A DNA stretch of 44,989 nt from Verrucomicrobiia bacterium (GTDB taxonomy: Bacteria > Verrucomicrobiota > Verrucomicrobiia > Chthoniobacterales > Terrimicrobiaceae): NCBI GenBank assembly GCA_037129975.1, contig JBAXTX010000001.1:1-44989 (forward strand). Reading direction: 5' to 3'. Both the position numbers and the translations under genes were made by a program. The notes beneath the pieces are model-generated. The model saw only the letters and a program-made list of their open reading frames with translations. It was not told where the DNA came from and did no database searches. Positions 15,025-44,864 of the stretch are shown here, one piece after another (within the stretch, counting starts at the first letter, position 1; each line of letters begins with the position of its first letter).

Positions 15025-15924
15025 TTATCGCAATGCCTTTTCCCCAGGATCATCGAGAACTTGAAAACAAGTCATTTTTTTAACATCTTTGTGATCCTCG
15101 AAGGTCCAGACGACTTTCTTGTCAGGCGAGATTTCCAGCAGATGCGGTGCCGGGTCAATCTGGCCATGAGGGAAATTACAAACCACCGTATTCCCATTTG
15201 GGAGACGCTGTACGCCACAAACAAATTTGAGCGGATGCCCCGGCAGATCGTCATTCGAAACCTCCCAGACCACTTTTCCCTGGGCGTTAACTTCAAATAC
15301 TCTGGCATTATTTGTCTTGTCCGCCGCACCTATCAATGTATTGCCGTTCGGAAGCCGTATCACAGACCGCCCGCCGCCAGGCGCTGGAACCTGCCAGACA
15401 ACCTGACCTTGCCCGTCATACTCCCGAGCCAACTGGCCGCAATAGATTCCGGCGAGAAAGTTGCCACCCGGCAATTGCCTGGCATTGGCCAGGAATCCGT
15501 GTGAGCCGTGCTCTCCCGGTTGTAACAGCGGAACTTCCTGAACAACTTGCCCAGACTGATCAACAACGACCAATCGCCCAAATGTCGTCTCACCAACCAA
15601 CGTTTGTCCGTTCGGCAATCGCTGACACGTGAAGACCTCGCTCTTGGTGGTATATTTGAACACTTCCTTTTTTTCGCGCGTAACCTCCACCACTCCATGT
15701 CCCGTGGTAAACAAGAGGTTGCTGTTGGAAAGAACCCACAGATCGCAGACATGTTCCGCCGGATACTCCCACTCCACGCGCCCTTCGCGACCCACGATAA
15801 AAACTTTGCCCAGCACATAGTCGCCGCACACAACCTCGTGGCCGACAGCCGGCTCAGCCGCCGCCACGCTCCCTCCGAGAGCAATCATTGTTATGAGCAG
15901 ACACGCACCGGTTTTCATTCGCAT
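15025..15924 (-). CDS. secreted beta-propeller protein (PQQ/ASST-like blades), function unknown
   Basis: The likely start is ATG 15924 (MRMKTGACLLITMIALGGSVAAAEP signal), 13 nt after the upstream stop and preceded by GAAGGGGGG. A blade motif recurs four times: RLPNGQTLVG, QLPGGNFLAG, RLPNGNTLIG, RLPNGNTVVC. Confidence 0.7.
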   Translation of the reverse strand: MRMKTGACLLITMIALGGSVAAAEPAVGHEVVCGDYVLGKVFIVGREGRVEWEYPAEHVCDLWVLSNSNLLFTTGHGVVEVTREKKEVFKYTTKSEVFTCQRLPNGQTLVGETTFGRLVVVDQSGQVVQEVPLLQPGEHGSHGFLANARQLPGGNFLAGIYCGQLAREYDGQGQVVWQVPAPGGGRSVIRLPNGNTLIGAADKTNNARVFEVNAQGKVVWEVSNDDLPGHPLKFVCGVQRLPNGNTVVCNFPHGQIDPAPHLLEISPDKKVVWTFEDHKDVKKMTCFQVLDDPGEKALR

Positions 15925-15937
15925 AAGCCCCCCCTTC

Positions 15938-18900
15938 CTATTGACGTCTTCCATAAATAAACTTCACTTTGGACAATCCAACGGCGTCTCCGCCGTAATT
16001 GCTGATGACCTTAATTTTTACATACCGTGCACTGAGGACATTCGCGAAACGGTGTTCAAATCCTTTATAAGTGTCCATTCCGTCCGCTTCGGGAAATACG
16101 AGGGATTCGGGAAGAGAGTTCCAAGTCGTGCCATCGGCCGAGAACTGGAGCTCCGCTTGCTTGATCCCGCATTTCGTACTTAAGTCGCCTGGGGCTCCGA
16201 GGGGAGGAGTCCCCTTGAAAAAGCTACTTGCGGCGATCGCTTGCTGATTGAGATTCCAGATCCGTAACCCCGCTAATGGAAGCACACGGCCAAGATCAAA
16301 TTGAAGCCAAGCGCCGGAAACCTCACCTTTTTTGGACAACCACCAATGCCCCTGATTGGTATGTCGTTCCCCGTCGTCGCTCAACCCGCCGCCATTGAGC
16401 ATATTATTGCAGCTGTTTCGGTAATCACTCGATACGGTCGCCTTCATGTTGTCGGGATCCCATTCCAACAAGTGCGGAGTTGCCGCATTCCAATCGCAGA
16501 TGGCGGATACAGAACTCGATTTCGGACCTTCGTTGCCATTCCGGTCAATGGCAGCAACCTCATACACATGGGTCTCCCCCTGAAGAGTGTCGTGATCGGC
16601 AAAGGCTGGGGTCATCGCCCATGTGAAACGTTTGCCGTCACGATAGATGACATAGCAACCGGTGCCACTTTCGCGATCGATGACCGGCTCCCATGAAAGT
16701 TCGATCCGCACCGGACCGTTCGACGGGGATGTCGCCCGCAGACTTGACACGGCCGGAGGCGGAGTCTTGTCCTCCCGGTAGATTTCCAATCCCAAAGGAT
16801 TCCAAGGTTGGAAGTCAACCATGGGAAAAACTTCCTCTCCTCGCGTCTGAGCGGCCACCTGTTTTTTGCTGAAGACCGTTCCGAACTGCGCCGAGTTGCA
16901 GTCAAGCCACAGAACGACCCGGCGGAAATCCTCGTCGCTAATGACGCCCGCCTTCCTCGCCGCCTGATGCGTCGGGCTCAACAACGCTTGCCCCATCTTC
17001 GATGCCAAAGCCCCGAAATGCCCGGGAATTGTACGCGACCCCGCGCAGGCGACACCACCAACCGCGCGGCTTGCTTCAAACCAAAAGGCATAGGGGCGCA
17101 ATGCGGCATAATCCATGTTTTTCGGTCCCGTCTTTGCATTCTGCCCTGCCTCTTTCACATGGCAGGGCTGACAGGTGTTATCGAATACCGGTTTGACAAG
17201 ACGGTGATAATTGAACGGTATGTCACCGTCGGACACTTCAGGCTTGAGGAGGGACGGCTCGCGTGTGAACGCCGTGGGCCTGCGGGTCAGCCGGGGTGCC
17301 CGCCATTTGTTTTCATGGCATCCCTGGCAGGTGAGTTGTTCACCGGCCTGGACGTGGGTTGCCGAGCGCATGGATTGCACAGCCATGCCATTCTCATCGA
17401 GCGCCTGGAAGTAGATATCTTTGTGGATCGGCGCGAAAAAATAGGCACTGCCATCGTCGTCCACCGGCACGATCCCCAATGGCATTCGGCAGTTGTTGAC
17501 TCCATTATCATAGCCGGCATTCGCGGCATAGCCCATTGCACCATGTCCATGCGTGTAGAAAGGGCCCTGGTCATCCTCATTTTTGGGAAAGAACTGGAGG
17601 ACGCGCAGCCACTTGATCTTCTTCAGGCCCGCGGCCACCTCGGGCGGCCAAGGGAGATCCGCATCATAGATGTTCATGATTTTGATCGTGGCGGGGGGAT
17701 GCGGCATCGCATGGCGCGCGCCTTCGTACGTCTGCACCGGGATCTCCGGCGGCTTGAGCCGCGGCCGCAGGGGAATCGGATCGCACAACCCGCCTGCCGC
17801 CCCAGGCACCTCACATCTGGCAACAATCAACTCGCGGTTGCCGAACCGGTCCAGATAGAAGATATCCGGACCATAGGCACAGAGGTAGAAATCGCGATGG
17901 AGCGGCCAGCAATAGCCATACACCTTGTCGCTGCCCACGCCAAAAGGCTCGCAGGTGTCCGCATCCCCGAGGCCATAGGACATGCTGTTGCATTCGGATT
18001 CGGGGAAAAAGAGCTCCGGCGTCAATCGTGAGACCTGTCCCATGCCAAAATCGTCTTCTTTTTTCAGATTAATGAGGACCAAGGAGCCGCGTTCTCCTCC
18101 ATGTATTGTGCTGGCCGTGGCCGTGTATAAGCCTGGAAAGCCCGGAACCGCGCGGATCCCCTGTTCCATGAAAGGATTCCCGACACCCAACCCTTTCCCA
18201 TTCGGCAAAGTCCGGTCGAACGTCTGATGGGGGAAGGGATAATTGCCATGCGGCGCCCGCGGATCGCGTCCGTCCGGATACGTCGTCCAAAGATTCCCGG
18301 TCCAGTGGGAAGCTTTGTCATAGTATTCCCAACGCGTAAAAACGATTTTCCCGTCAGAATCCACGCTCGGACTATATTCCGGCAGATCGTGATAACTCAT
18401 CGTGACAATGTCGCTGCCATCGGCCGCGCACGAATGCAGGGTGTACACGGCCGGGTACTGGTGGCCACACCGGAGCAGCATGCTGGTTTTGTCGGGCGAG
18501 CGGCGAAACGAGGTAAATGCGATCCTGCCGCTGGGAAGGTAACACGGATCCATGTCGGCAAAAGGACCGTCCGTTAGCTGAACGCAGTTCGATCCATCAA
18601 CATTTGCCTCGAAAAGATGCCAAACACCATCCGAGTCCCAAATCGCTGATGGATGTGATCGCAAATAAATTCCGTGCGGAAGCATTGGCGACCATGCAAA
18701 AAGGATTTTCTTGCCATCGAACGACAATTCCAGCGAACTGAAGGCTCCGGCCTGCAGCAACGGGCCGGTGGCGGGTGGCGCCAGCAATTTGCCGGCATAA
18801 CGTCCACGCGCAATGGTCTTGCCTGCGAAGATGTTTTCAACTTTTGGTGCGGCGCCAAAGGGATCTTGAACGACCCAAACACCTTTCCCCGCCATCCAAT

Positions 18901-19471
18901 TCAGATCTACGCAGTTGCGATAGTCAGCCCGCGATCCGACCAGAAGCTTGTCAAAGTTCAGCAAGGGATTGCTAAACGCGAGCCGCCGGCGCAGCGCGCA
19001 GACCTGGCGATAGAGATCCTTGCGGGCGCCGGGGTCGGACGCCGCGGCGGTTTGTCGTTCGATGCTGGCTAATTGCTCCTGGTAGTCGCCGGAATTTCCC
19101 TTCCATCCCGGCATCGTCGTCAAATAACCCAGCAACGCCTTGGTACGGCGCAATACGATAGCGAGCGGATCCTTATCCGCCTTGTGGTAGAACGCCTGCA
19201 GGTCGAGCGCATGAGCCTTGTCGTCGTTACCGATCCCCCGGGCGGCGAGATCGGGGTCCTTCTTCAGCCAGCTCAGGTCCTTCGGTTTATACAAGAAGCC
19301 GTCCCTCGCGATGATCTCCTGCATCTCGGCGTAATGGCGGTCCCACTCCGCCAGCACGCTGGCGCGAAATTCGTTGCTCCCGGCATGTGGCTCATCGTCC
19401 GCCGCAAATCCCGCGCCACCCAGCATTGCCAGAGCCAACACCACCAGCATTGCGGTCTTGCGCTTGTTCAT
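15938..19471 (-). CDS. HzsA-related secreted protein: helical N-region + TolB/PD40-like beta-propeller + two c-type haem motifs + FN3 + F5/8-type-C (discoidin) domain
   Basis: 1177 aa with signal MNKRKTAMLVVLALAMLGGAGFA. Propeller segments include DPCYLPSGRIAFTS and DSDGKIVFTRWEY. The CxxCH motifs are CQGCHENKW and CQPCHVKEAG. The FN3-like part is VRIELSWEPVIDRESGTGCYVIYRDGK...YEVAAIDRNGNEG. The discoidin-like tail is WWLSKKGEVSGAWLQFDLGRVLPLAGLRIWN...YVKIKVISNYGGDAVGLSKVKF. It is colinear with the paralog at 41335-44466. Confidence 0.6.
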   Translation of the reverse strand: MNKRKTAMLVVLALAMLGGAGFAADDEPHAGSNEFRASVLAEWDRHYAEMQEIIARDGFLYKPKDLSWLKKDPDLAARGIGNDDKAHALDLQAFYHKADKDPLAIVLRRTKALLGYLTTMPGWKGNSGDYQEQLASIERQTAAASDPGARKDLYRQVCALRRRLAFSNPLLNFDKLLVGSRADYRNCVDLNWMAGKGVWVVQDPFGAAPKVENIFAGKTIARGRYAGKLLAPPATGPLLQAGAFSSLELSFDGKKILFAWSPMLPHGIYLRSHPSAIWDSDGVWHLFEANVDGSNCVQLTDGPFADMDPCYLPSGRIAFTSFRRSPDKTSMLLRCGHQYPAVYTLHSCAADGSDIVTMSYHDLPEYSPSVDSDGKIVFTRWEYYDKASHWTGNLWTTYPDGRDPRAPHGNYPFPHQTFDRTLPNGKGLGVGNPFMEQGIRAVPGFPGLYTATASTIHGGERGSLVLINLKKEDDFGMGQVSRLTPELFFPESECNSMSYGLGDADTCEPFGVGSDKVYGYCWPLHRDFYLCAYGPDIFYLDRFGNRELIVARCEVPGAAGGLCDPIPLRPRLKPPEIPVQTYEGARHAMPHPPATIKIMNIYDADLPWPPEVAAGLKKIKWLRVLQFFPKNEDDQGPFYTHGHGAMGYAANAGYDNGVNNCRMPLGIVPVDDDGSAYFFAPIHKDIYFQALDENGMAVQSMRSATHVQAGEQLTCQGCHENKWRAPRLTRRPTAFTREPSLLKPEVSDGDIPFNYHRLVKPVFDNTCQPCHVKEAGQNAKTGPKNMDYAALRPYAFWFEASRAVGGVACAGSRTIPGHFGALASKMGQALLSPTHQAARKAGVISDEDFRRVVLWLDCNSAQFGTVFSKKQVAAQTRGEEVFPMVDFQPWNPLGLEIYREDKTPPPAVSSLRATSPSNGPVRIELSWEPVIDRESGTGCYVIYRDGKRFTWAMTPAFADHDTLQGETHVYEVAAIDRNGNEGPKSSSVSAICDWNAATPHLLEWDPDNMKATVSSDYRNSCNNMLNGGGLSDDGERHTNQGHWWLSKKGEVSGAWLQFDLGRVLPLAGLRIWNLNQQAIAASSFFKGTPPLGAPGDLSTKCGIKQAELQFSADGTTWNSLPESLVFPEADGMDTYKGFEHRFANVLSARYVKIKVISNYGGDAVGLSKVKFIYGRRQ

Positions 19472-20316: not shown

Positions 20317-22219
20317 CAGGGCGTTTGGTTTGAAGCCAACGGAAGCAGATAGAGAAAGGGGAAAAGAAAAGGCTAGACAAAAGGGCACCGAAAAGCTGAA
20401 CTACGGTGGTGAAAAAGAAGACACCACAAAAAGTCGGCGTCATTGCCGGGGTTGAGGGGAAATGGGAAGTGAAGGTGGCGCATTCGGCGCAGGACTGGCG
20501 ACGGGCGAAGGAAGCCCTCGGGCGGGAGCACGGTTTAGGGGCCGGGAGCGAGGCCGGAGACCGGCTCTGTCAGCTGGTGATGGAGGAAGGGAGGCTTGCC
20601 GGGGTTCTGGTGTGGTGCGCGGCGGCGTGGCATTTGAAAGATCGCGACGAAGCGGTGGGGTGGGATGCGGTGACGCGCTCGGAGCGGCTCAAGTTGGTGG
20701 TGCAACTGCGACGCTTCCTGGTTTTGGAAGAGGCACGGCGGCCGAATCTGGCCAGCCAATGTCTTGGGGCCGGGATGCGCGAACTGGTTGCCCAGTGGGA
20801 AAGCGAGCACGGCTACCGTCCGCTTTTGGCGGAAAGCTTCAGCGATCCGGAAAGTCACGCGGGCACCGTTTACAAAGCGACGAACTGGACGCAGGCCGGG
20901 ACGACGAGGGGGTTTTCCCAAGACCACACCGATTATTACATCCCCAACGGGAGGCCGAAGAAGTTGTGGCTCAAAGAACTCGCGCCACGCGCCTACGAGT
21001 TGATGAGTGCGCGCGAGTTGCCCGAGGCCTGCAAGGGGGCGTTGGTGACTCGCGGGGGAGCCCGCAGCCCGCTCAAGAACGCGGGGCTCAAAAGCCTGCG
21101 CGACGCGCTGGCTGAAGTGCCCGATCCTCGTCACCCCAAGAGCCGCCGCCACCCCCTGCCAGCGATGCTCGCCCTGATCGCGCTCGGCTTGCTGATGGGA
21201 GCGCGCGACGTGCTGGATATTTGGAGGAAGGTCGCCTGCCTGTCCCAGAGCCAGAGAGAGGCCATCGGCCTGCGAGTGCGCGACAAGCAGACCAAGCGAC
21301 TCAAGATGCCTGGCTACGACGCGCTCAATGATCTTCTGGCCGCCGTGGAACCCACCGCCTACGCCCGCGCACTCACGGCATGGTTGCAGGCCAACGCGGG
21401 TGTGCTTCCCCGCAGTCTGGCCCTCGACGGCAAAAGCGTGGGAGACGGACGCTGCGGCATGATCGTCACTCTTTGCCGTCACGAGGACGGACGTCCCGTG
21501 GCCATGATCCCGGCCAGCGGGAAAAAAGAGGACTGTGAAGTCTCCGAGGCCCGCGCCCTGCTCTCCGATGCCCAGGTGGAACTGGTCAATGCGCTGGTGA
21601 CGGCTGATCCCCTTCACAACAAGGAGGCCACCGTGCGGGTCATCTTGGAAAAAGGTGGCGACTACCTCATCGGCACAAAACAAAATACTTCCAAGCGACT
21701 GGAGGGAGCCACCCGCGCCCTTGAGGGCTCCCCTTTTTTGACCTGAGTTGCGAAGGCGATCACGGCCGCATCGACTCCCGCAAAGCCGCTGTGGAGGCCA
21801 TCTCCCCGGTCTCGGCCGGACTGCCCGGTGCCCGTTCCGCCGTGACCGTGCAGCGCGACTGGAGCGAAAAGAAAGAACCTCAAACCCTCAAAAGCCATAC
21901 CCGCGTCTTCCTCTCCAGCCTGCGCACGGAAGAAAAAGCCCGTTCCACAAAGGCCGCCCGCGAACACTGGAGCATCGAGAATCGCAACCACCACAAACGC
22001 GACGCCTCCGCCTGGCAAGAAGACCGGCACCGGCATCGAAGACCCAATGCCGCTCTGAACCTGGCACTCACGCGCAACGCCCTGCTTGCCATCATTCCCT
22101 TCCAGCAGGGCGAGCCCCTCGCCCACTTCTTCGAGCTTTACCACCGCCACCCGGCCCAAGCCCTCAACCTTATCCTTCAAGCCCGCCCCGTCTTATGATT
22201 CCTCCAGCCAAACGCCCTG
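20317..22219 (+). mobile_element. ISAs1-family insertion sequence (1903 bp) with terminal inverted repeats and a TSD
   Basis: IRL at 20317 is CAGGGCGTTTGG. IRR at 22208-22219 is CCAAACGCCCTG, its exact reverse complement (12/12, then 4 of the next 7). The ends start CAGGG, as I recall for the ISAs1 family. The element contains one transposase reading frame at 20406-22198. Confidence 0.8.
20406..22198 (+). pseudogene. DUF4338-domain::ISAs1-family DDE transposase, split by a -1 frame change at 21734-21740 (597 codons if fused)
   Basis: The N-terminal about 200 aa show the DUF4338 pattern (HGYRPLLAESFSDPESHAGTVYKATNWTQAGTTRGFS...RPKKLWLKEL). Next comes the ISAs1 N-domain (VPDPRHPKSRRHPLPAMLALIALGLLMGARD) and the DDE core (LALDGKS..., VTADPLHNKEAT...GGDYLIGTKQN). 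Frame 0 stops at 21744-46. The -1 frame continues DLSCEGDHGRIDSRK...AAREHWSIENRNHHKRDASAWQEDRHRHR...NLALTRNALLAI, the typical ISAs1 C-terminus. Confidence 0.75.
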
Positions 22220-25941: not shown

Positions 25942-26342
25942 GGCCAGAGAATAACAAATCGTGTTCCGGGTGCCGCGAGGGGCAGATCCATCCAGACCGA
26001 TCAGGATGGGTCTTTCACGCGAAAAACTTGTCATAAGCGAATCGAATGTGTCAAGCAATTGCCGGGGTGGTGTTTGTCTCTTTGTCTCTTGGAAAGGGAA
26101 AGCGCCAGAAGGGGAGAGCGACAAACGATAGATAAGGGAGGGGCATCGCCCGCGGTGCCCTTGCTGTGGCAGAGCGGAGTTGGGTTTCCGAGTCAGAGGC
26201 TTCCTCATTTCACCGCCCTCTTTTGCTTCCGCTTCGTGCGGACCAGCCTGAGCCGCCCCCGGGTTTCAATCGTCCATTCCACGATCTCTCCCTTTTTTGA
26301 GATTCCTATTGCCCGCCCGCTATTCTCCGGCAATGATTTTTC

Positions 26343-27581
26343 GTGAGCAAAAAACTTCGCAACCGCCTGCTGGCCCTTGTCTGCCTGATCGTGTTCTTTG
26401 CCGGGGGGGGCCTCTTCTATGTGAACTGGGTGATCCAGCGTCCGTTCGCGATTATTCTTTTTCTGTCGGACACTCTCACGCCCTCGGTCCTGACGGCATC
26501 CAGGATTTACGCGGGAGGCGCCGACCACAGGCTCGGCATGGAAAGGTTTCCGCACCTGGCGCTGCTGACCTCGCAGGCCAACGACTTCGCCGTGGCCGAT
26601 GGCGCGGCGGCGGCGGGCTCGGTGGCGACCGGACAGAAAGCCAACAACGGATCCCTTCGGTTCGAGGGAGGCAAGTCCCCGCTTCCCACGCTCATGGAGA
26701 TGGCCAGGAAAAGAGGCCGTGCGACAGGGATTGTTTCCAACACCTCCCTGACCGAAGCGACGGCCGCGGCATTCTATGCCGGGACTTCCGACCCTCTCGA
26801 TTTCGAAAACATCGGGAGGGAGCTCGCGGAAAAATCCGGGATCAATGTCCTGCTGGGCGGCGGAGCGGCGGATTTGCTGCCGGATACAAAAGACGGCCGC
26901 CGTCGTGACGGCCGCGACCTGATTCTGGAAATGCGCAACCGGGGATATGACATCGTGCGCAACAGGCAGGAGATGGAAAGCACCCCGCAGTGGCGCGCCC
27001 CCAAGGTCCTCGGAGTCTTCAGCAAGGGGCCGCTTGCTTTCGCGGACGAGGTGCAGGTATCGGCCTCGCAGCCTTCGCTTTCCGACATGGTGCTCCAGGC
27101 CATCCTTCTTCTTCAATATAATCCCAAAGGATACTTTCTCGTCGTGGATGCGGGGTTGTCGGGGAAAGCGGCGTTGCAGAATCAGGGCGAGCGGATGATG
27201 AAAGAGATTCTCGTGCTCGACCGTGCGGTCGCGACCGCCCAAACATATGCGGGAGAGAATGCGCTGATCGTGGTTGCGGGACGTTCCAACCCCGGAGGCA
27301 TGCGCATGAACGGGTATTCCTTCCGCAATGACAAGGGAGCCGCGGTCCTCGGCATCAACGCCCAGGGAGTCCCCTCGCTGACATGGTCCACCGGACCCGG
27401 CTCCGGCTCCAAATCCTCTCCGGAGGGACTCGCCCGCACCGAGCCGACGGCTTTTCAAACCGCTTCCTCCATCGGCGTGGCCGAGGATGTCGTCGCCGTC
27501 AGCCAAGGTCCCGGAACCGAAACGCTCCAGGGATTTCAGGACAACACGGAGATCTTTCGCGTCATCAGCAAAGGCTTCTGA
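26343..27581 (+). CDS. membrane-anchored alkaline-phosphatase-family homolog with degenerate active site
   Basis: GTG start and an N-terminal TM helix (LLALVCLIVFFAGGGLFYV). It is colinear with the PhoA family (ILFLSDTLTP...; ...FAVADGAAAAGSVATGQKANNG; PTLMEMARKRGRATGIVSNTSLTEATAAAFYA; GYFLVVDAGLSGKAA; LIVVAGRSNPGG). The nucleophile motif D-S-A is D-G-A here, and the metal-ligand motifs are replaced. Confidence 0.6.
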   Translation: MSKKLRNRLLALVCLIVFFAGGGLFYVNWVIQRPFAIILFLSDTLTPSVLTASRIYAGGADHRLGMERFPHLALLTSQANDFAVADGAAAAGSVATGQKANNGSLRFEGGKSPLPTLMEMARKRGRATGIVSNTSLTEATAAAFYAGTSDPLDFENIGRELAEKSGINVLLGGGAADLLPDTKDGRRRDGRDLILEMRNRGYDIVRNRQEMESTPQWRAPKVLGVFSKGPLAFADEVQVSASQPSLSDMVLQAILLLQYNPKGYFLVVDAGLSGKAALQNQGERMMKEILVLDRAVATAQTYAGENALIVVAGRSNPGGMRMNGYSFRNDKGAAVLGINAQGVPSLTWSTGPGSGSKSSPEGLARTEPTAFQTASSIGVAEDVVAVSQGPGTETLQGFQDNTEIFRVISKGF

Positions 27582-27641
27582 TGACACATCCGCGCATGTC
27601 GCGCATTGACAAACCGGAAGCATTCCGGGATCAGTAGGCAT

Positions 27642-28337
27642 ATGCGTACGCTTCTTCTGCCGGTGATCGCCGTTGCTTTTCTGGGAGCGGGCTGTGAACG
27701 GCCCGCGGAGCCAGCCGGTTCTCAGCGGACGGTCCGGCCAACGGAGCCGGCCACGCCGACGCCGGCCGGCGTCGTGACGATCCCGGAAGAGTTCCAATCT
27801 CCGACGCAGACTCCGCTCCCTGCCACCCCGAAAATTCTTTTTGCCGTCAAAAATTTCCAGGTGAAGACCGGTTCCGGAATCCAGGGGATCATGGCGGGAG
27901 AAACGGTGAACGTCATCCGCGAGGTGCGGGATGACGTCGTCGTGCAATACGGCGAACTCGAATTCACCAGGCCCCAATCGTTTTTTTCTCCGACCTTTGT
28001 CGGTTCGAATCCCCCACAGGAGGTTCCTGCCGCGGTGCCTGCGGAGCCGGCCGAAACGATCGGACTGGCCGCTCCTGTCCCGGCCGCCGAACCCGTCCTC
28101 CCGGAGGAAAATTTCCCGGCAAGGCCTTTGCCGCGCCCCCCTCTGACCGCGGGGGAAAAGAAAATGGCGGAGCTGGCGGATTCGATTCGTGCCCTGAACG
28201 AAAAGATCCGGACCGCCCAGGCGAATGCCGGGTCTCCGGGGAAACAACCGACCCGCGCGGAAAAACGCGCCCTGGAACAAATGAAGGCGGACCGCGATGA
28301 GCTCAGCCTCCAGTTGACGACATTGGGAAAGCCCTGA
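27642..28337 (+). CDS. lipoprotein with Pro-rich linker and C-terminal coiled coil, function unknown
   Basis: ATG 27642 starts MRTLLLPVIAVAFLGAGC, a lipobox (LGAG|C). The C-terminus (MAELADSIRALNEKIRTAQ...EQMKADRDELSLQLTTL) looks like a coiled coil. Confidence 0.6.
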   Translation: MRTLLLPVIAVAFLGAGCERPAEPAGSQRTVRPTEPATPTPAGVVTIPEEFQSPTQTPLPATPKILFAVKNFQVKTGSGIQGIMAGETVNVIREVRDDVVVQYGELEFTRPQSFFSPTFVGSNPPQEVPAAVPAEPAETIGLAAPVPAAEPVLPEENFPARPLPRPPLTAGEKKMAELADSIRALNEKIRTAQANAGSPGKQPTRAEKRALEQMKADRDELSLQLTTLGKP

Positions 28338-28355
28338 TCGCCAGTTGGGAAATTT

Positions 28356-29615
28356 ATGAAAATTCTTCCGGGCCAGGGGCAGGCAGTTGATAACCCGGCC
28401 CGCTTGGAGGCGCTGGCGGATATCGGGGTGCTCGACACTCTGCCGGAAGATTCCTTCGACCGCTATACCCGGATCGCCTCGGCTATGCTGCATTCCGAGG
28501 TGGCGCTGGTTTCGTTTGTGGATCTGGAGCGCCAATTTTTCAAGAGCCAGGTCGGGCTGCCCCCGCCATATGACCAGACCCGCCAGACACCGCTTTCCCA
28601 TTCGTTTTGCAAACTTGTCGTCCAGAGTGGAGAGCCCTTGATTGTCGAGGATGCACGGACGGACCAACGGGTGTGCGACAACCTGGCCATCCTCGATCTC
28701 GGGGTCATTTCCTATCTGGGGATGCCGGTGAAGTCGCAGGAGGGGTTCCTTCTGGGATCGTTGTGTGCGATTAACTCGATGCCGCGGGCATGGTCCGCAG
28801 CGGATCAGAGCCTGCTGGCCGATCTCGCGCGAGCGGTTTCAACGGAGATCGGGCTCAGGCAACGCACCGTTGCCCTCAAGGAATCGTTCGCGATCCTGCA
28901 GGAGACCGAGGAACAGCGAGAGACAAGCCTGCATATGCTCATGCATGACCTGAGAACGCCGGCGGGCGCCATTGTGAGCGTCACCGATCTGCTCGGTTCG
29001 ACGACGCCCTCTCTCAGCCCGGATCAACAGGAGTTGATCCAAATCTGCCGCGACTCCGCGGAAAGCCTGCTCGCGATGATCCGCGACCTTCTCGACATGA
29101 ACAAAATGAAGTCCTCCGATTCTCCGGCGGACCTTGCAGATGTCTCGGCCTCCCATTTGCTGAGGCGTGTGGCCCAGATGATACAGCCCGCTCTTGACGC
29201 CGCCACGATCCGGCTTTCGATGGACTATCCAGATTGCGGCGGCACACTTCGCGTGGACGGCCGACAGATCGAGCGTGTGCTGTTGAACCTGCTGACCAAT
29301 GCCGCGAAGTTCTCCCCCGCGGGCGCACTGATTTCGCTCTCGGCCCGCACCGCACATTTCGAAGGCGAAGAAGGATTCCGTTTTGAAATTTGCGACGAGG
29401 GCCCCGGAGTTCCGGACGCAGAGAAGGAGGCCATATTCGAACAGTATTTCCAAGGCTCGATTCGTGCGGCGCGCGGCATGGAATCGTTCGGGATCGGCCT
29501 CGCATTTTGCAAAATGGCCGTCGAAGCACACCGCGGACACATCGGCGTGCAGGATGTCCCCGGCGGAGGCAGCATGTTTTATTTTTTTCTTCCGGCCACG
29601 CCTCCGCTCCAGTAA
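28356..29615 (+). CDS. soluble GAF-domain sensor histidine kinase
   Basis: The N-terminal GAF region is ...HSFCKLVVQSGEPLIVEDARTDQR...ISYLGMPVKSQEGFLLGSLCAI. The H-box is LHMLMHDLRTPAGAI, the N-box is LLNLLTNAAKFSP, G1 is ICDEGPGVP and G2 is GIGLAFCK. There is no TM segment. Confidence 0.85.
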   Translation: MKILPGQGQAVDNPARLEALADIGVLDTLPEDSFDRYTRIASAMLHSEVALVSFVDLERQFFKSQVGLPPPYDQTRQTPLSHSFCKLVVQSGEPLIVEDARTDQRVCDNLAILDLGVISYLGMPVKSQEGFLLGSLCAINSMPRAWSAADQSLLADLARAVSTEIGLRQRTVALKESFAILQETEEQRETSLHMLMHDLRTPAGAIVSVTDLLGSTTPSLSPDQQELIQICRDSAESLLAMIRDLLDMNKMKSSDSPADLADVSASHLLRRVAQMIQPALDAATIRLSMDYPDCGGTLRVDGRQIERVLLNLLTNAAKFSPAGALISLSARTAHFEGEEGFRFEICDEGPGVPDAEKEAIFEQYFQGSIRAARGMESFGIGLAFCKMAVEAHRGHIGVQDVPGGGSMFYFFLPATPPLQ

Positions 29616-37893: not shown

Positions 37894-38787
37894 TCAGTTT
37901 TCACTTAGTTTTCGCACGGTTGGCGCAGTGGTAGCGCACCTCCCTGACACGGAGGGGGTCGTAGGTTCGAACCCTACACCGTGCATATTTCCGAACCCGG
38001 ACAGATCAAGAAGACAAGCCGCCACCATCCCGTCGGAGCGGGCACAGAGCCGCTCGATTTTTTCCCGCTCCATATTCATCCAGGCAGTGGAGAGGGCGTC
38101 CGCCTCGGCTGCAGTCGGGGCAAGGGCCCAGGAACGCCGATATCTGGAGGCCGGGTTTCCCGTTGAAGGATCGATGATATGCCGCCCCCGCATATCGAAT
38201 CCCGAAGTGCCAAGAGCGCGCCGACACAGCGGCAGCTCCCTGGAGCCGGCGCCATCGCCAAGGCGAACCGCCCACCCTTCTTGTCCATCCGGAGCATCAC
38301 CCGCCAGAATGCTGCTCCCGGAGCTCATCAGGAGAAATCTTTTGATCCCCCACACGTGAAGTTCCTCCGCCATCCGGTCGAGAGAGAATCCCTTTGCGAT
38401 CGCGCCCAGATCAATCACGCAGGGAGCGGAGTCGGCAACGAACTCGACTGTGGCGTGGTCGAGATGCCAGCGCGGCGAGGCAATTTCCGGGCGGCCTTCG
38501 GTGGCGCACACATGGAAAGCCCCCTCCGTGGCTTTCTGCACCTCGGCGGCAAGCGCAAGGCAATCAAAGACCTCCCGGGAGAGACGCCGGCGCCCTCCCG
38601 TGGGAAGGGCCGCAAGAGCGGACACTTCGCTGTCATCGCGGAACCGGCTCATGAGGGATTCCATGCGGTCGGTGATCGCGAACGCCGCCTGCGCTGCCTG
38701 CGCGGCATACGCTTCCTCTTCGCCGGCAATTCTCACCTGCCACCAGGTGTTCATCGCGTGGTGCGATGCCACATGGATGCCGCTCAT
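37894..38787 (-). CDS. apbE: FAD:protein FMN transferase (ApbE family)
   Basis: ATG 38787 (MSGIHVASHHAMNTWWQVRI...) overlaps the upstream stop (ATGA). ApbE-like blocks are SEVSALAALP, VIDLGAIAKGFSLDRMAEEL, LLMSSGSSILA, ALGTSGFDMRGRHIIDPSTGNP and AAEADALSTA. The last about 30 codons (…GVGFEPTTPSVSGRCATTAP…) are the antisense translation of the tRNA-Val gene. Confidence 0.8.
   Translation of the reverse strand: MSGIHVASHHAMNTWWQVRIAGEEEAYAAQAAQAAFAITDRMESLMSRFRDDSEVSALAALPTGGRRRLSREVFDCLALAAEVQKATEGAFHVCATEGRPEIASPRWHLDHATVEFVADSAPCVIDLGAIAKGFSLDRMAEELHVWGIKRFLLMSSGSSILAGDAPDGQEGWAVRLGDGAGSRELPLCRRALGTSGFDMRGRHIIDPSTGNPASRYRRSWALAPTAAEADALSTAWMNMEREKIERLCARSDGMVAACLLDLSGFGNMHGVGFEPTTPSVSGRCATTAPTVRKLSEN
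37914..37985 (+). tRNA. tRNA-Val(GAC): tRNA-Val (anticodon GAC)
   Basis: I folded the cloverleaf by hand. The acceptor is GCACGGT/ACCGTGC, the D-arm GCGC-AGTGGTA-GCGC, and the anticodon arm CCTCC-CTGACAC-GGAGG (anticodon GAC). The variable loop is GGGTC, the T-arm is GTAGG-TTCGAAC-CCTAC and the discriminator is A. CCA is not encoded. Confidence 0.9.
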
Positions 38788-40265
38788 CGCCCGGCCTTTC
38801 CGGCCCGCTCGTAAATCAGGAGCAGCGCTCCCGGTCGCTGGCAGAAGATCGAGGGGCGCCACCCCTTGCTCTCCAACTGCAACCTCTCGGCCTCCGCCTG
38901 ATCCAGAATCACGATATCCGCTTCGGGCATCGCATCTCCGGGACGCCAATATCCGACCTGGGGATAGCTCCGCAAATACCAGGGCAGCGGCCAGGGATCA
39001 TCGGCCATGACAGCGATGCGAAGCGGGCGGGCGGCTTGCTTTTGCAGACGCTCCATGGTGCCCGAGAGGTTGCGGATATCTTCGGAGGTATGCGAATAGG
39101 CAAGCGGGTTGCTCTCCCCGGCGGCATGACGGAAGACGCGGTCGTCGAGATCCTTGGAAATAAAAAAGCCCAGGACCAGCATGGCTGCCTCGCTCAGAAG
39201 TCTGGAGCGTCGCCAGAGGAACGAGAGGGCCAGCGCCGCCAGCAGTGCCAAGGGAAGCCAGATATTGAGAAGCAGCCAGGGAGTTTTGTAGGGGATCAGG
39301 GAATAAAGGAGGAACACCACCAAGGCATAGATCGAGAGAAACCGGCCGGCCTCCCGATGTGCTGTCCCGCGCCAGGCGAGCCAGCCTCCGGCAATCGCGA
39401 GGGCAAGCGTCGGCGGCCCCGAACTCATTCCCAGGAAGAGTTCCCAATAATAAATGAACGGCTTCTCGTGTCCCTGCCCCCCCGCACGCGAGCAGGCATG
39501 GCCGACTGCTGCGAAGATCTCACCAAAAGCGGACCAGTTTCGGAATCCCCAGGTAAAGCAGAGAAGAACGACAGCCGCACCCGAAAGGACGAAGAGAACT
39601 GCCTCGCGCCAACCCGGCGCCGGTTTCCCGCGCAGGGAAATCATGGCGGCCGCGGCTGCCGCGAAGGCGACGACGGATGTCGCCTTGGTCGCGATCATCG
39701 CGCCCGCACAGAGCCCCGCCATGCAGAACCAGCCCGCGGCCCGCGTGCTTCGGGCCAGGAGAATCGAAACCAGAAATCCGAACGTCAGCGAAAGGAAAAG
39801 CGATTCGTGGATGGCATACCTTCCATAATAGACGCAGAGGGGATCGAGCGCCCAGAGCAGCGCCGCAAACCCGGCGGCGGCCGCACCGGCGACGCGCGAA
39901 AAGGGAATGAAGAACAGGATTCCGAGCAACGACGAAAGAACCGCCGGGAGCCTGAGTTCCTCCGCGGTCAGCGCGGCAAGATTCCCGCTTCCCGCCAGCC
40001 TGCAGATCCCGTCACTCAGCGCAAAGTAAAGCGGACCGTGGTGATCCGTCGGATCGTAGCGATACGGTTCGCCTTCGAGAATCTTTCCGATCAGGTAGGC
40101 ATTGACCGCCTCGTCGGTATGCATCGGACGGTCAGCCAGCCGGGGAACGCGAATCGCCAGAGCAAGAAGCACGATAACGAGGAAGGCCGCCCATTTCAGA
40201 AACGGCCTCTCGCGACCGTTCCGCCCGGAAGGAAGCCCCTCCTCCACATTGCGGCCGGTCGTCAT
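38784..40265 (-). CDS. GT-C-fold membrane glycosyltransferase (GT39/ArnT-like; TIGR03663-type)
   Basis: 493 aa with more than 10 hydrophobic helices. The first-loop motif RLADRPMHTDEAVNAYLIGKILEGEPYRYDPTDHHGPLYF is typical of this family as I remember it. Confidence 0.65.
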   Translation of the reverse strand: MTTGRNVEEGLPSGRNGRERPFLKWAAFLVIVLLALAIRVPRLADRPMHTDEAVNAYLIGKILEGEPYRYDPTDHHGPLYFALSDGICRLAGSGNLAALTAEELRLPAVLSSLLGILFFIPFSRVAGAAAAGFAALLWALDPLCVYYGRYAIHESLFLSLTFGFLVSILLARSTRAAGWFCMAGLCAGAMIATKATSVVAFAAAAAAMISLRGKPAPGWREAVLFVLSGAAVVLLCFTWGFRNWSAFGEIFAAVGHACSRAGGQGHEKPFIYYWELFLGMSSGPPTLALAIAGGWLAWRGTAHREAGRFLSIYALVVFLLYSLIPYKTPWLLLNIWLPLALLAALALSFLWRRSRLLSEAAMLVLGFFISKDLDDRVFRHAAGESNPLAYSHTSEDIRNLSGTMERLQKQAARPLRIAVMADDPWPLPWYLRSYPQVGYWRPGDAMPEADIVILDQAEAERLQLESKGWRPSIFCQRPGALLLIYERAGKAGR

Positions 40266-40289: not shown

Positions 40290-40955
40290 CTATTGCGCCG
40301 GTTTTCCGTAAACCTCCACTTCGATATAGTGGTTCAACTTGTTCGTGGTATTTCCTGAACTGTAAAGGCGGACATAACGGCCTTTGGTTCCCTTCGCATC
40401 AATGAGCTTGCCTTCGCAAGTCTCGATATACATCAGATCCTTGCCCGCTCCCAGACCGGAGCTGTTTTCCGAATCGTTGTTGAAAACCGTCGTCACGCCC
40501 TGCTCAAATTTCGGATCATCGGAAATCTGCACGATCACGGAACGATAAACCCGCGCGTCCGCGTGAAAATGCCAGGCCACAATCGCATAGATATTCGCGG
40601 ACTGACCGAGGTCGATCTGCACCCACTGCGTGCCAGCACCGAACTCCACGTAGCACCCCTCGTCGCCGGCTTTGTCCCCGTCCGTCACAAGATCCTGCGC
40701 ACCGACCACCGGCTCCGAGTCGCTCGATGTGACACGCTTTCCGTTGGCAAGGTTGACCGTCCCTGCCGGCACGAGGAAATCAGGGCGTTTCCCCTTGCTC
40801 GGGGGTTCCAAATTGGGAATTTTAACAGGCACGGGAGTGCCAACAAAAAGCGGGGGCGGAAGTTCAAGTTTCAACGGCACCTTGGCATCTTGCGCAAATG
40901 CGTTTGTTCCGAGTGGAGCCAGCGCGAGCAGGACAGAGCAGAAAATAGCTTTCAT
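40290..40955 (-). CDS. secreted discoidin (F5/8 type C)-domain protein
   Basis: Signal MKAIFCSVLLALAPLGTNAFA, then a Pro-rich linker. The discoidin-like part is VTSSDSEPVVGAQDLVTDGDK...GTQWVQIDLGQSANIYAIVAWHF...GRYVRLYSSGNTTNKLNHYIEVEVYG. Confidence 0.7.
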   Translation of the reverse strand: MKAIFCSVLLALAPLGTNAFAQDAKVPLKLELPPPLFVGTPVPVKIPNLEPPSKGKRPDFLVPAGTVNLANGKRVTSSDSEPVVGAQDLVTDGDKAGDEGCYVEFGAGTQWVQIDLGQSANIYAIVAWHFHADARVYRSVIVQISDDPKFEQGVTTVFNNDSENSSGLGAGKDLMYIETCEGKLIDAKGTKGRYVRLYSSGNTTNKLNHYIEVEVYGKPAQ

Positions 40956-41013: not shown

Positions 41014-41311
41014 CTAAATGGCTTCCATTTCAGCGGGATTAAGGTCAAGCGTGCGCCGGGCGGAGAGAGCCTCATTGGCCTTGTGGATGATGTATTCGCT
41101 TGAGAACGCTTCATCCGCGGGGCAGTTCAGCTTGGCCGTTCCACGGATGGAGTTAAAGAAGTTCTCCAGGTGCGGTTGGTGGATCGCCTTGTTAAAGGGA
41201 AACCGGAATATCAAAGGAGGCAAGCGCCGCCGTTTCACGAACGTCCACCTGGGTGTTGTCGTCGGAGTCGGCCTTGGGCGGGAGCCCCTGCGCACGGATA
41301 TAGTTTTTCAT
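41014..41311 (-). pseudogene. 3' remnant of a Gfo/Idh/MocA-family oxidoreductase gene (frameshifted, lacks the Rossmann domain)
   Basis: One frame reads MKNYIRAQGLPPKADSDDNTQVDVRETAALASFDIPVSL*. The next reads ...FPFNKAIHQPHLENFFNSIRGTAKLNCPADEAFSSEYIIHKANEALSARRTLDLNPAEMEAI*. That tail matches the C-terminus of PVC/Bacteroidota Gfo/Idh/MocA enzymes (H.L.NFF.aIRG...LNCPa..). No N-terminal part exists upstream, because the HzsA-like stop is at 41335. Confidence 0.4.
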
Positions 41312-41334: not shown

Positions 41335-44300
41335 TCAAAACCTGTCTTGTCCCCCTTTTGTTGACACGGGCGGCGGTGTGAGGGGTGGCAGGTCGCGGCA
41401 AGCGCCCGGCTCGATCTGGGCCCCGGGCATATCCACACGCGGCGCTTGAAGCGCTTCGTTCCTTGCTTGCGTGATGATCGCCAGCATGGCCTGGTATGAT
41501 CGTGCATTTGTGTCGGCAAAACTCACCGCCGGCACCCCCGCCCTGTCCGGCAAAGGCTGGCGTTTGGGGGTGAAGACATCCGGCGACTTGGCCGTCCAGT
41601 TCAGGATCAGCGGGTAATCGGGCGCGGCTGCCTTGCGCTCGCGACACCACCCCAAGCCGAGTGGCTGGCCAGGAGCCATTGGCGCGCGCAGCAAGCGGCT
41701 CTTCGCAGGCTCGCGCAAATTAACCCAGTCGTTGCCGATTGCTTTCGAATGACAGCGCAGGCAACCGGCGTTCTCCATCTCGCGCGTGAGCGACTCACCG
41801 ATCTTCAGCATCGCATTACACGTGGCGCTGGGGGTGTAATCCCAAGTTCCGTAATAACCGCTGTTGAGATCCATCCATGCCAGAAGCAGATCGATCTGCT
41901 GGCGGGGCATTTTTGCGAGCCGTCCTTTGTGGCCGCTGAGCAGAAGCGATGCCAGAGGCGCCTGGCCGGAGCCATGGGTCAGAGGCGGAAGGATCTCCAC
42001 GGTGCGCATCGCCGTATTGTCGCAGTTCAAAAAACCGGTCAGGGTGTTTTTGAGCAGCGTTTCGTAACTGATATTGAAGGCCCAGGTCCAGCCGCCGCTC
42101 AAGTCGAGGCCAGCCGCTATGCCATCTTGGCCGCCATGGCAGGAGACACAATTACGATCCAATACCGGTTGGACACGCTTAGCATAATCCAGAAACCCTG
42201 CGCCCCAGGATTCGGGTTCAATCTTTGCAGCTGGCTTTTGTAATGCCGCCAGCTTCAGTCTGGGGTTGGCTGGCGCCTGGTTGTCTTCTTTGTTGTGACA
42301 GCCTGTGCAAGAGCGCGTCGTCCCCTCAACCGCCTGAACAAAGGTGCGCTGGCTTTGCAGCATTCGACCATCCCCATCCAAAGCCTGAAAATAGAGCGCC
42401 TTACCCGGCGGCGCCTCGAAATAGGCGGTACCGTCGCTCTCGACCGGAACGACGCCAATGACATTCTTGAGGTCGTAGGAACCCTGCCAACTGACCAGAA
42501 ACGCCTGGTTCCACCAGCGTCCGCCCGGCGGACGGCCGCTTACCCGGGTGGTGGTTTCAATGATGCGCAATTTTTTCACCCTGCCGCGCTCGACGCCGGG
42601 CATCCCTTGGTAAATGTCATTCACCAGGAATCTGGCGGGTTGGCCAGGCTGAATCAACGAGGGCCGCATTGGGGGGCGCGGGCGCGCGGCGACCGGCCGC
42701 GGAGCATAGCAGGAAAAGAGGCCGTCGCGGTAGATCAAGGCGCGCGAGCCGAACCGATCGATCAATTGGATCGCCCCGCAGGTCCCGCCGCTCGGTTGGT
42801 TGTTGGCGATTAAGACGAAGTCCCGATCAAGCGGCCAAGGATCGCACGGGCCTTCGTACAACCCGCCACCCGCGGTCGAGTATTCTGTGGTAAAATTAGC
42901 GATGGCGGCCGGGGAATTTTTCCCCATCCGCGGATCGATCATGGCAATGGCGCCGACCGGTTGGCCGTTATGCCCGGAGAGTGTGGCGACAACCAGCTCA
43001 CTGTCAGGCACGGGCCGCGCCTGCAAAAGCGAGATTGGCAGGGCCATGTTATTGGCGAAAAACGCGGTTTCATTGCTGCCGTCCGGATTGACCGTCCAGA
43101 GGCATTGAATGTAGAACGCCGTCTTGTCTATGTATTCCCAGCGGCCGTAGAGGATCCGGCCGTCGGGCAGGACGCATGGGTCGAACTCGGACGCGTGATT
43201 GACGGAGAGGCATTTCAGGTCGCTCCCGTCGGCGTTGCAAGAGTGCAGGATGGCGAAGCGGTTGTTGAAGCACATCACCAGCCCACCGGCGCGAGTGCTG
43301 GTAAAGATGATCCGGCCGTCGGGGAGGTAGCAGGGATTGACGTCATGCTGCCCCATGCCCACAATACCGGACGGAGCTTTTTTGCAGGCGCAGTCAGCAC
43401 CCGGATTGGTGATCCGTCTTAGGCCCTTTCCGTCGATGCCGATTTCATAGAGGCTGGTATCGCCGTCTTCCTTGCCCTTAAAGGCGAAGAGAACGCGTTT
43501 GCCATCCCATGAGAGATCCGGATCGCGGTAGACGCCTTCGCCAAGGGTTTCAGGTGTTGTGGGATCGATCACCGCCCGGACCCGCTGCTTCGGCAGGGGA
43601 TCCGACGGATTCTCAAGCACATAAATCCCGCCGCCTGGATGCCACGTCAGATAAGTGTCGTAGATATGAGTGCTGTGGTAGAGCGGATGCCGGGCAAAGA
43701 GCAGCGGCTTGTCGAGCAGTGAACACAGAGCATGGCGTTTCACCTCGATGAACGCCTCGGCTTCCGCCAGGACCGTGAAGTCATAGGCCTCCAATCCAGC
43801 CCGGATGGCCCCCAACCGCGCACGAACCGACGCTATTTTTTCCTCATCTTGGCGATAATCGGCCGCCTTTTCGGTTTTGACCCGACAGAGCGCCTTCAAG
43901 GACTTTTCGAAATTCGCAAGGATTGTTTCCGTCAGCTCCTGCCGCGCGATCTCAAAACGTTGATAATCGTCAGGACCAAACGGCAGCGTATTCACACTGA
44001 AAATCGCATGTTGCTGAACGGACCCGTCATGATTGATTCCGACCAGAGACTCAAATCCAACGGCATCCGACGGCACCTCGAAGACCAGTCGGCTGTTGGC
44101 GAAAGCAAACAGACCACTGGTTAGAGTCCGGCCGGGGATTTGCAGCGGTTTTTGATCCGCGCCCCGGTCGACATATACCTGAAAGGCTCCCACTCTCGAG
44201 CTGGCCGGTTTGCACTTGGAGAGGGCCATCTTCGTCCCATCGCGCAAAATCAGAAAGGGCTCACCCCACACCGCATACCCCCCCCCCTGCGCTTCGAGCA

Positions 44301-44466
44301 CCAGGGTCTTCGCCCCAGTGATCGACAAAGTGATGGTGCGGGCAGGTTCACCGCCCTTGAGCGGGCCGCATTCGACCCGGTTGAACGCGGAGGGCTCGCT
44401 TCCCGGCACGGCCACGGAGCCAGCCAACAGAACTATGACGAGAGGCGTGATCAGTCGGAGTTTCAT
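41335..44466 (-). CDS. HzsA-related secreted protein: NPCBM-like module + helical region + TolB/PD40-like beta-propeller + three c-type haem motifs
   Basis: 1043 aa with signal [20 protein letters not shown]. The N-terminal NPCBM-like part is ...[50 protein letters not shown]. The propeller includes [14 protein letters not shown] and [13 protein letters not shown]. The haem motifs are [19 protein letters not shown] and [10 protein letters not shown]. It is a paralog of 15938-19471. Confidence 0.6.
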
Positions 44467-44864
44467 TGTTTATGACCTTCAGGCGCCAGGTGCGACGCCG
44501 GTTTATAGATGAACGAATCCCAATATTTGCGGTCCATTTCGTAAACATTGATCGGATCCTTCGCCAGATCGAACGTCTCGGGCAGCAGCCCGTATCGCTT
44601 CATCTCCCGCACGTACTCCGCCGGCGGTTTGAAACCCGGCATATCGAACCGCATACCGGTCTGCGCCAGCTTGTCGAGAACCGGCGTTTGATAGGTCTCG
44701 CCGCCGTCGGCCCCGATGCATTCGTAGCCAAGATCGTCAGCCAGGACAATGATAATGTTCGGCCGTTGCGACGGAGCTCCGGCAGAAGGTCCGGCAACGC
44801 CAGCCCTGCCGAACGCGGCCAATGCGAGCACGAGAGCGATTTCTTGCAATTTCCTCATTTTCAC
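44463..44864 (-). CDS. 132-aa chimeric ORF: signal peptide + first about 70 residues of a sulfatase, fused to an unrelated about 58-residue tail
   Basis: [19 protein letters not shown]...[40 protein letters not shown] is a sulfatase N-terminus that ends just before the CxPxR site. It is followed by [49 protein letters not shown].... The stop overlaps the start of the HzsA-related gene (ATGA at 44463-44466). Confidence 0.5.

Follow-up and report, generated by a model that had tools for sequence, protein, structure and literature searches.

In the 44,989-nucleotide (nt) stretch of Verrucomicrobiia contig JBAXTX010000001.1 that we analysed (hereafter the window), we found that the gene at 41335-44466 encodes an exported multi-domain protein, in which a Sec signal is followed by a carbohydrate-binding module (CBM) of the CBM51 type, a helical bundle, a beta-propeller, an HZS_alpha domain, a second haem-bearing domain and a C-terminal extension with a third haem motif. 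From the propeller onward the protein is homologous to and colinear with the alpha subunit of hydrazine synthase (HzsA), and it is not a hydrazine synthase. It is a typical member of a named, uncharacterised family and is therefore not new in kind; what is new here is the circular permutation of the CBM51 module, the division of the family into two- and three-haem branches, the clustering of paralogs, a recurrent ASST-like partner, a probable deletion scar upstream of the gene and the setting aside of the ApbE, GT-C and discoidin genes as partners. With a probability of roughly 0.4, we read the target protein as a glycan-targeted periplasmic haem-c redox enzyme of glycan catabolism, with haem 1 as its presumed reactive site and haems 2 and 3 as a presumed wire; its carbohydrate link is drawn from gene context only.

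The target gene is intact and under purifying selection. When we compared it with its 86%-identical relative in a Spartobacteria metagenome-assembled genome (MAG; locus L007, the closest of the GTDB loci), the ratio of nonsynonymous to synonymous substitution rates (dN/dS) was 0.16 overall. By region, dN/dS is lowest in the middle domain (0.056), followed by the haem-2 domain (0.09), the propeller (0.13), the third-haem extension and the helical bundle (0.21 each) and the CBM module (0.33). Orthologs of 1000-1079 amino acids (aa) span 95-100% of the target. The protein carries CxxCH motifs at residues 720 (CTGCH), 773 (CVSCH) and 902 (CLRCH); by a simple calculation, a random protein of this length (1043 aa) with typical proportions of Cys and His would be expected to contain about 0.005 such motifs. 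All three motifs are kept in 120 of the 120 best homologs, so that the cysteines, whose variation an earlier note on this DNA had named as grounds for doubt, are invariant; the two spacings between the motifs are 50-110 residues (nearly all 50-54) and 121-140 residues (nearly all 121-131), and the family consensus at haem 1 is CxGCHxKxDxxAP. Conserved CxxCH motifs in a signal-bearing protein are the sequence mark of a multihaem c-type cytochrome, which we predict the target to be.

The third motif lies, as the earlier note had described, in the C-terminal extension and is absent from the second HzsA-related protein of the window (15938-19471, paralog 1), which has only two CxxCH motifs. To place this extension in the family, we counted motifs in 120 full-length representatives, taken from the top 150 of an exhaustive search over 50%-identity representatives of public data, and found that 71 carry two CxxCH, 47 carry three, one carries four (a tandem fusion) and one carries none. 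Because 47 of these 120 are three-haem proteins, the third haem marks a major branch and is no oddity of the target, and about 40% of the family representatives nearest to the target have the extension. The extension (residues 868-1036) bears invariant SRxLRA and RVDMPGA motifs, has no match in PDB or Pfam and, among the loci examined, is seen only within HzsA-like open reading frames (ORFs). One 1774-aa protein from the exhaustive search, P0131, has four CxxCH motifs that are spaced like two complete two-haem cores fused in tandem.

An AlphaFold 2 (AF2) model of the target, built on 70 homologs, has a predicted local distance difference test score (pLDDT) of 87.2 and a predicted template modelling score (pTM) of 0.85. 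In this model, a beta-sandwich occupies residues 29-161 (pLDDT of 84-97 per 10-residue block for the CBM module), five helices form the bundle at 165-248 (165-177, 180-196, 198-216, 218-226 and 230-248), the propeller runs from about 255 to 600, the beta-rich middle domain spans 611-720 and the C-terminal part is helical. The Sec signal was judged by eye, and pLDDT is below 50 at residues 1-9 and 12-23. Invariant residues of the propeller include HIYD at 267-270, HD at 374-375 and RWEYxDK at 442-448. The Pfam domain HZS_alpha (PF18582) matches residues 628-725 over its whole profile (1-98 of 98) with 70.9 bits, against a cut-off of 26.6. The coordinates of these parts, and of the other genes that we discuss below, are collected in Table 1.

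Table 1. Parts of the target gene and other features of the window, with the basis of each assignment.
Feature	Position	Strand	Basis or detail
Three-haem HzsA-related gene (target), complete	41335..44466	-	ATG start, 1043 aa; stop codon 41335-41337
Putative Sec signal peptide, residues 1-23	44398..44466	-	positive n-region, hydrophobic core, PGS end
Circularly permuted CBM51/NPCBM beta-sandwich, residues 24-166	43969..44397	-	Pfam, profile search, re-permutation
Helical bundle joining CBM module to propeller, residues 167-250	43717..43968	-	AF2
TolB/PD40-like beta-propeller, residues 251-610	42637..43716	-	AF2 strands, Foldseek, alignment with paralog 1
HZS_alpha middle domain, residues 611-725, haem motif 1 CTGCH at its end (nt 42295-42309)	42292..42636	-	Pfam PF18582
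Helical domain, residues 726-867, haem motif 2 CVSCH (nt 42136-42150)	41866..42291	-	aligns to HzsA and to CQPCH of paralog 1
C-terminal extension, residues 868-1043, haem motif 3 CLRCH (nt 41749-41763)	41338..41865	-	motif invariant in homologs
Paralog 1, two-haem HzsA-related, 1177 aa, C-terminal F5/8 type C domain	15938..19471	-	Pfam, BLASTP
ASST/Mala_s_1-like small beta-propeller	15025..15954	-	Pfam; adjoins paralog 1
Paralog 1 cluster, same strand: IclR (19468-20265), paralog 1, ASST-like propeller, GH106, GH2, GH95		-	Pfam
Chimeric 133-aa ORF	44463..44864	-	Pfam Sulfatase and C-terminal match; 4-nt overlap with target ATG
Secreted discoidin protein	40290-40955	-	downstream of target, 379-nt gap
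GT-C/Agl23-like membrane protein	38784-40265	-	downstream of target
ApbE	37894-38787	-	downstream of target

When we searched the PDB with the target sequence, HzsA was the only match (5c2v_A, E 6e-10), in four colinear phmmer segments that cover two propeller blades, the middle domain to CSGCH and the C-terminal domain around CAMCH; in the haem-2 region, target residues 759-806 align with residues 644-694 of the 5c2v chain. Foldseek against the PDB also placed 5c2v_A at the top (E 4.2e-25, 786 aligned columns, template modelling (TM) score 0.61 when normalised by the target), followed by TolB and peptidase propellers (TolB 2hqs, E 7e-11). HzsA of Kuenenia stuttgartiensis (PDB 5C2V) has the same propeller, the same middle domain ending in CxxCH and the same helical domain with a second CxxCH; however, the two proteins are only 17% identical in the fold alignment, and the target adds the third haem module, the N-terminal CBM and the helical bundle. 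The spacing between haem 1 and haem 2 is 53 residues in the target as compared to roughly 100 in HzsA (estimated from the alignment), and the host of the target is not an anammox bacterium, its closest relative being a Spartobacteria MAG. HzsA itself is characterised by a Zn site formed by His587 and Cys303.

The target is not a hydrazine synthase because three results speak together. It scores 60.4 bits with the NCBIfam equivalog model hydrazine_alpha (NF052339), for which the cut-off is 800; there is no Tyr in the 21 residues after His724, whereas in HzsA, Tyr591, four residues past the CxxCH His, is an iron ligand of haem alpha-I (PMC12758564); and the window holds no HzsB/C-type partner, since the two HzsA-like ORFs are the only ones in it that bear CxxCH. 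A CCP/MauG-like gene was not found in the window either. Non-anammox HzsA homologs have been described before (clades I-IV in PMC12758564; PMC10732223) as uncharacterised HZS_alpha cytochromes of Planctomycetota, Verrucomicrobiota and their relatives, and like the target they are without the HzsA-specific ligand residues. Those homologs were chosen by adjacency to HzsBC-like genes and are one- or two-haem forms, whereas the target has no HzsBC-like neighbour, three haems and a CBM51. Both studies left the function of these proteins open and made no link to polysaccharide degradation (PMC12758564; PMC10732223), and the origin of hydrazine synthase alpha is debated (PMC12758564). Our own literature searches returned nothing relevant on HzsA-related proteins or on hydrazine synthase together with sulfatase and polysaccharide.

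To see what the two HzsA-related proteins of the window have in common, we aligned them by BLASTP and obtained a match of 182 bits (E 8e-51, 27% identity) between residues 273-874 of the target and 190-865 of paralog 1, in which the two peptides quoted by the earlier note as matching are aligned to each other. That note had proposed a shared helical, propeller and haem core. We found that the two proteins do share the propeller, the middle domain with its haem motif and the C-terminal domain of haem 2, but no sequence similarity can be detected between the helical regions (Smith-Waterman score of 26, with 27.9 ± 4.5 for shuffled sequences). Secretion and a glycan-binding-type module are further likenesses. 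In contrast to the target, paralog 1 has two haems (CxxCH at 715 and 767), and its module is a C-terminal F5/8 type C domain, not an N-terminal permuted CBM51. Its FN3 domain is as reported in the earlier note; NCBIfam gives only a weak CbhB-like match there. The genes of the paralog 1 cluster overlap or stand at short gaps, and the ASST-like propeller gene that adjoins paralog 1 has homologs in six other HzsA-like loci (L092, L069, L047, L007, L001/L009 and L015), which suggests that it is a specific partner of HzsA-related genes. The two-haem F5/8 type C paralogs that stand beside orthologs of the target in L011, L012 and L087 were considered as orthologs of paralog 1 and rejected, being 30% identical to it with an N-terminal F5/8 type C domain.

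The earlier note had proposed an NPCBM-like module at the N-terminus of the target. Pfam NPCBM (PF08305) does match residues 80-158 with 39.1 bits (cut-off 23.9), but only over profile positions 3-81 of 137, and the isolated module scores 47.2 bits. We found that the match is only partial because the module is a CBM51 in circularly permuted order. A profile that we built from the module in 20 homologs matches solved CBM51/NPCBM structures (7js4, E 2.7e-18; 2vmh and 2vmg, about 2.5e-9; also 2ygl and 8pvs) with its parts swapped, so that the first ~90 residues of CBM51 are matched by profile positions 50-136 and its last ~50 by positions 5-50. When we computationally restored the canonical order, two homologs matched Pfam NPCBM in one stretch (3-136 and 2-134 of 137, 88-94 bits) and the target matched 3-121 of 137, again in one stretch (49 bits), whereas in native-order sequences the match ends at profile position 80-81. 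We relied on profile searches and re-permutation since an AF2 model of the N-terminal 236 residues without an alignment was uninformative (pLDDT 39.9). Compared with the CBM51/NPCBM modules of 2VMG, 2VMH, 7JS4, 2YGL and 8PVS, the target module shows whole-length homology once the part order is restored; it differs in that the canonical last ~50 residues come first, in its fusion to a cytochrome where canonical CBM51 modules are fused to a glycoside hydrolase or peptidase, and in the loss of several family-conserved residues. Our literature search found no paper on a circularly permuted CBM51, and the permutation is a small structural novelty in itself.

The residues lost from the module bear on what it may bind. 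In both the target and its 86% relative, the near-invariant motif GYSWGQAVWGE has become G--GGYAVWGE and FAHADS has become FAFANS, and a further motif has changed to VGAF. The module is still constrained, and for that reason an altered specificity seems likelier than decay.

The family to which the target belongs is large. A word-indexed search returned 1571 homologs at E <= 1e-5, under names such as 'NPCBM/NEW2 domain-containing protein', 'HzsA-related protein' and 'PD40 domain-containing protein' and with named hosts in Verrucomicrobia, Phycisphaerae and Planctomycetota. The exhaustive search returned 6006 clusters at E <= 1e-3, 3258 at <= 1e-10 and 1374 at <= 1e-30, and the 80 GTDB loci with family members are mostly from Planctomycetota, Verrucomicrobiota and Lentisphaerae. 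Among the 120 best homologs, 55 have the CBM51, bundle and core arrangement of the target, 13 have bundle and core, and nine are a bare core; a further 23 have a core followed by a C-terminal Laminin_G_3 region of ~280 aa, one has both CBM51 and the Laminin_G_3 region, and a long N-terminal region of no known type is present in 11 with the Laminin_G_3 region and in eight without it. Cores in other loci are fused to an N-terminal F5/8 type C domain or to FGE-sulfatase domains. The accessory modules of the family are all ligand-binding or lectin-type, and as the earlier note had anticipated they differ from member to member (permuted CBM51, F5/8 type C, Laminin_G_3, FN3, FGE-sulfatase); since the cores carry such varied ligand-binding fusions, its picture of interchangeable modules is right at the level of the family. 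That the CBM51 type itself is a recent shuffle is not supported. When core sequences are placed in a neighbour-joining tree, which is crude, proteins of this type group in a single broad clade across several phyla with scattered losses, and we take the architecture to be old and widespread.

To ask what surrounds family members, we counted neighbours in 77 non-redundant loci. At least two HzsA-like genes lie within 10 kb of each other in 21 of the 77, mostly as a three-haem and a two-haem gene, with arrays of up to five. One further locus (L092:1-19003) has seven tandem HzsA-related genes, four of them fused to an FGE-sulfatase domain, with an ASST-like propeller gene inside. The commonest neighbour other than a paralog is a Gfo/Idh/MocA oxidoreductase with a twin-arginine translocation (TAT) signal, which is present in 23 loci and within 500 nt in eight of them. 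Sulfatases occur in about ten independent loci, and PQQ_2 propeller genes recur. In the operon of the closest ortholog (L007), the gene order is IclR, an ASST-like propeller, an SDR gene, an 82-aa ORF and the HzsA-like gene. Loci of CBM51-type orthologs include one with seven sulfatases and a heparinase II/III; one with ThuA, AP_endonuc_2 and a 1064-aa PQQ_2 protein; one with a DUF6807 gene overlapping by 4 nt, GH29 and a two-haem paralog; one with GH38 and an M60-like peptidase; and one with ThuA, a sulfatase and a 3-keto-disaccharide hydrolase. In the operon at L091:5423-12675, genes for Gfo/Idh/MocA, an F5/8 type C protein, a CBM51-type HzsA-like protein and a sulfatase lie on the same strand with gaps of 23-27 nt. 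The carbohydrate link proposed by the earlier note is supported by gene context only. It is strong for paralog 1, with its GH106/GH2/GH95 cluster, and for several ortholog loci, with their sulfatase, heparinase, GH29, GH38, Gfo/Idh/MocA and DUF6807 neighbours, but contexts vary from locus to locus.

In the reading that we prefer, that of a glycan-directed haem enzyme, the permuted CBM51 would hold the protein on a glycan, as an F5/8 type C, Laminin_G_3 or FGE-like module would in other members. Haem 1, which by analogy with HzsA would lie where the propeller meets the middle domain, would be the place at which the substrate is converted. Electrons would travel by way of haems 2 and 3 between haem 1 and a soluble carrier or partner in the periplasm, and this partner may be a neighbouring paralog. 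Our best guess is that the protein oxidises a sugar, or a group derived from one, as polysaccharide rich in fucose, rhamnose or sulfate is broken down. Constraint in the target is tightest on the residues of the middle domain, and the propeller residues that are invariant across phyla are more than would be expected of a passive scaffold. Fungal AA12 pyranose dehydrogenase (with its AA8 cytochrome and CBM1) and the bacterial quinohaemoprotein dehydrogenases follow a comparable extracytoplasmic logic of propeller, cytochrome and CBM. These enzymes use pyrroloquinoline quinone (PQQ) with a b-type or a single c-type haem and have no homology to the target, in which we found no evidence of PQQ.

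Several points weigh against this reading. The placement of haem 1 with respect to the propeller and the identity of the distal haem ligands, for which H831, H846 and M1013 are candidates, are assumptions carried over from HzsA, and the corresponding site of HzsA does nitrogen, not sugar, chemistry. Sugar binding by the target CBM is uncertain because of the near-invariant residues it has lost. Gene contexts differ widely across the family, and some have nothing to do with glycans; at one locus, an FGE-like gene and a sugar ABC transporter are the only obvious hints of a glycan theme. Sulfatases, glycoside hydrolases and Gfo/Idh/MocA genes abound in the genomes of these phyla, so that they will often lie close by chance, and in a rough count the enrichment of Gfo/Idh/MocA genes in the slot next to a family gene is only about 2-fold as compared to slots farther away. 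The non-anammox members are also biochemically uncharacterised (PMC12758564; PMC10732223).

Of the other explanations, the one that survives best, although we consider it unlikely, is that the target is not an enzyme but an electron-transfer hub, which takes up electrons from sugar dehydrogenases in the periplasm and feeds them into the respiratory chain. The donors would be the TAT-exported Gfo/Idh/MocA proteins, PQQ_2-type propeller proteins or the two-haem paralogs, and the propeller and CBM would serve for docking and targeting. Periplasmic glucoside 3-dehydrogenases use cytochrome c as acceptor, which fits this role, as do the rank of TAT-signal Gfo/Idh/MocA genes among the neighbours (23 loci, eight of them within 500 nt), the recurrence of PQQ_2 propeller genes, the co-localisation of three- and two-haem paralogs in 21 of 77 loci, and a third haem that lengthens a possible wire. 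However, the Gfo/Idh/MocA adjacency is weak and far from universal, with no such gene near the target in the window, and no partner is conserved across loci. In addition, a simple carrier would not usually be constrained most strongly in its middle domain and propeller, as the target is.

We regard it as quite improbable that haem 1 performs hydrazine-synthase-like nitrogen chemistry on hydroxylamine, nitric oxide or a small N- or S-oxyanion, with the association with glycan genes being incidental or tied to the breakdown of amino sugars. HzsA is the only characterised homolog, and hydrazine-synthase-like enzymes have been suggested to form a wider family with alternative substrates (PMC10732223). 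In contrast, the hydrazine_alpha score of 60.4 bits against 800, the lack of a Tyr within 21 residues of His724, the lack of an HzsB/C-like gene or any other CxxCH protein in the window, and accessory modules of glycan-binding types all point away from it. A non-redox, TolB-like periplasmic glycan-binding or scaffold protein with structural haems is suggested by TolB as next-best structural match for the propeller, by the lectin-type modules and by the lack of a recognised catalytic domain, but it too has little chance, given that the three haem motifs are the same in all phyla and hardly vary in spacing, that dN/dS is lowest in the middle domain with its haem, and that 118 of 120 full-length representatives retain the motifs of the two- or three-haem branch.

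If the reading of the target as a glycan-directed haem enzyme extends to its relatives, the two- and three-haem HzsA-related proteins could be a large and so far unrecognised class of extracytoplasmic haem-c carbohydrate-active redox enzymes of an 'auxiliary activity'-like kind, with interchangeable lectin-type modules and paralog arrays, and could have been the stock from which the anammox hydrazine synthase alpha arose; we put this forward as a doubtful but consequential possibility. Planctomycetota, Verrucomicrobiota and Lentisphaerae are degraders of sulfated and complex polysaccharides. With glycan-directed haem enzymes, models of polysaccharide turnover would gain a new redox step and hydrazine synthase alpha a concrete ancestral context, and the interest of the family lies in its size (6006 clusters at 50% identity) together with its link to the origin of hydrazine synthase. 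The window offers a two-haem and a three-haem paralog in one genome, the two-haem one within a glycoside-hydrolase cluster.

Upstream of the target, the chimeric ORF that overlaps its start codon has two origins. Residues 1-74 come from the N-terminal end of a sulfatase and include a signal peptide but no catalytic motif (Pfam Sulfatase, profile positions 1-40 only, 20.9 bits, below the cut-off), and the last 59 aa match the C-termini of HZS_alpha ORFs of 716-870 aa in L045, L032 and L075. In L032, a gene of the type that supplied this tail lies directly upstream of a three-haem gene. The chimeric ORF is present in two assemblies and is probably the deletion scar of an upstream tandem paralog, the remainder of which became fused in frame to a sulfatase gene. 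We considered whether the small ORF at the start of the target is a conserved upstream partner and rejected this, as the 82-aa ORF in L007 is unrelated and the upstream DNA cannot be aligned. Farther upstream on the same strand, just past position 44989, are the C-terminal 80 aa of a GH106-like protein (L005:2-244), which share NLWPNRLIGD...SGLLGPV with the GH106 gene of the window at 11660-14923 (pairwise E 5e-9). On contig CAYNAQ010000004.1 (GCA_964395245.1), which carries the window sequence, the target starts 785 nt from the contig end. Around the target gene, we found no promoter or terminator consensus.

Downstream of the target, the discoidin, GT-C and ApbE genes are present as the earlier note had described. 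They are closely packed, the first two 24 nt apart and the last two overlapping by 4 nt, and are probably an operon of their own; the genes past ApbE on the same strand encode a cNMP-binding protein and dihydroorotate dehydrogenase. That note had taken ApbE as a hint of a wider redox context, which we found to be unsupported because the trio is not beside any other sampled family member: tblastn at E <= 1e-5 found no homologs of the three in about 85 other family loci, and we rejected them as family partners. The F5/8 type C protein beside the ortholog in L091 has only the domain in common with the window discoidin protein (25% identity). No flavoprotein target for ApbE is visible nearby. We also rejected the idea that the ORF at 41014-41295, which lies between the target and the discoidin gene, is a Gfo/Idh/MocA remnant, since it has no Pfam match at E <= 1 and no tblastn match to the Gfo/Idh/MocA cluster.

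Elsewhere in the window, an 820-aa arginine-rich ORF at 26205-28667 (minus strand) has no family match, is antisense to plus-strand genes and is probably spurious. An ORF at 20406-21746 (plus strand), with the IclR/paralog 1 cluster on one side and a sulfatase gene on the other, has DruA (Druantia) and DDE_Tnp_1-associated domains and may be a mobile or defence-related element.

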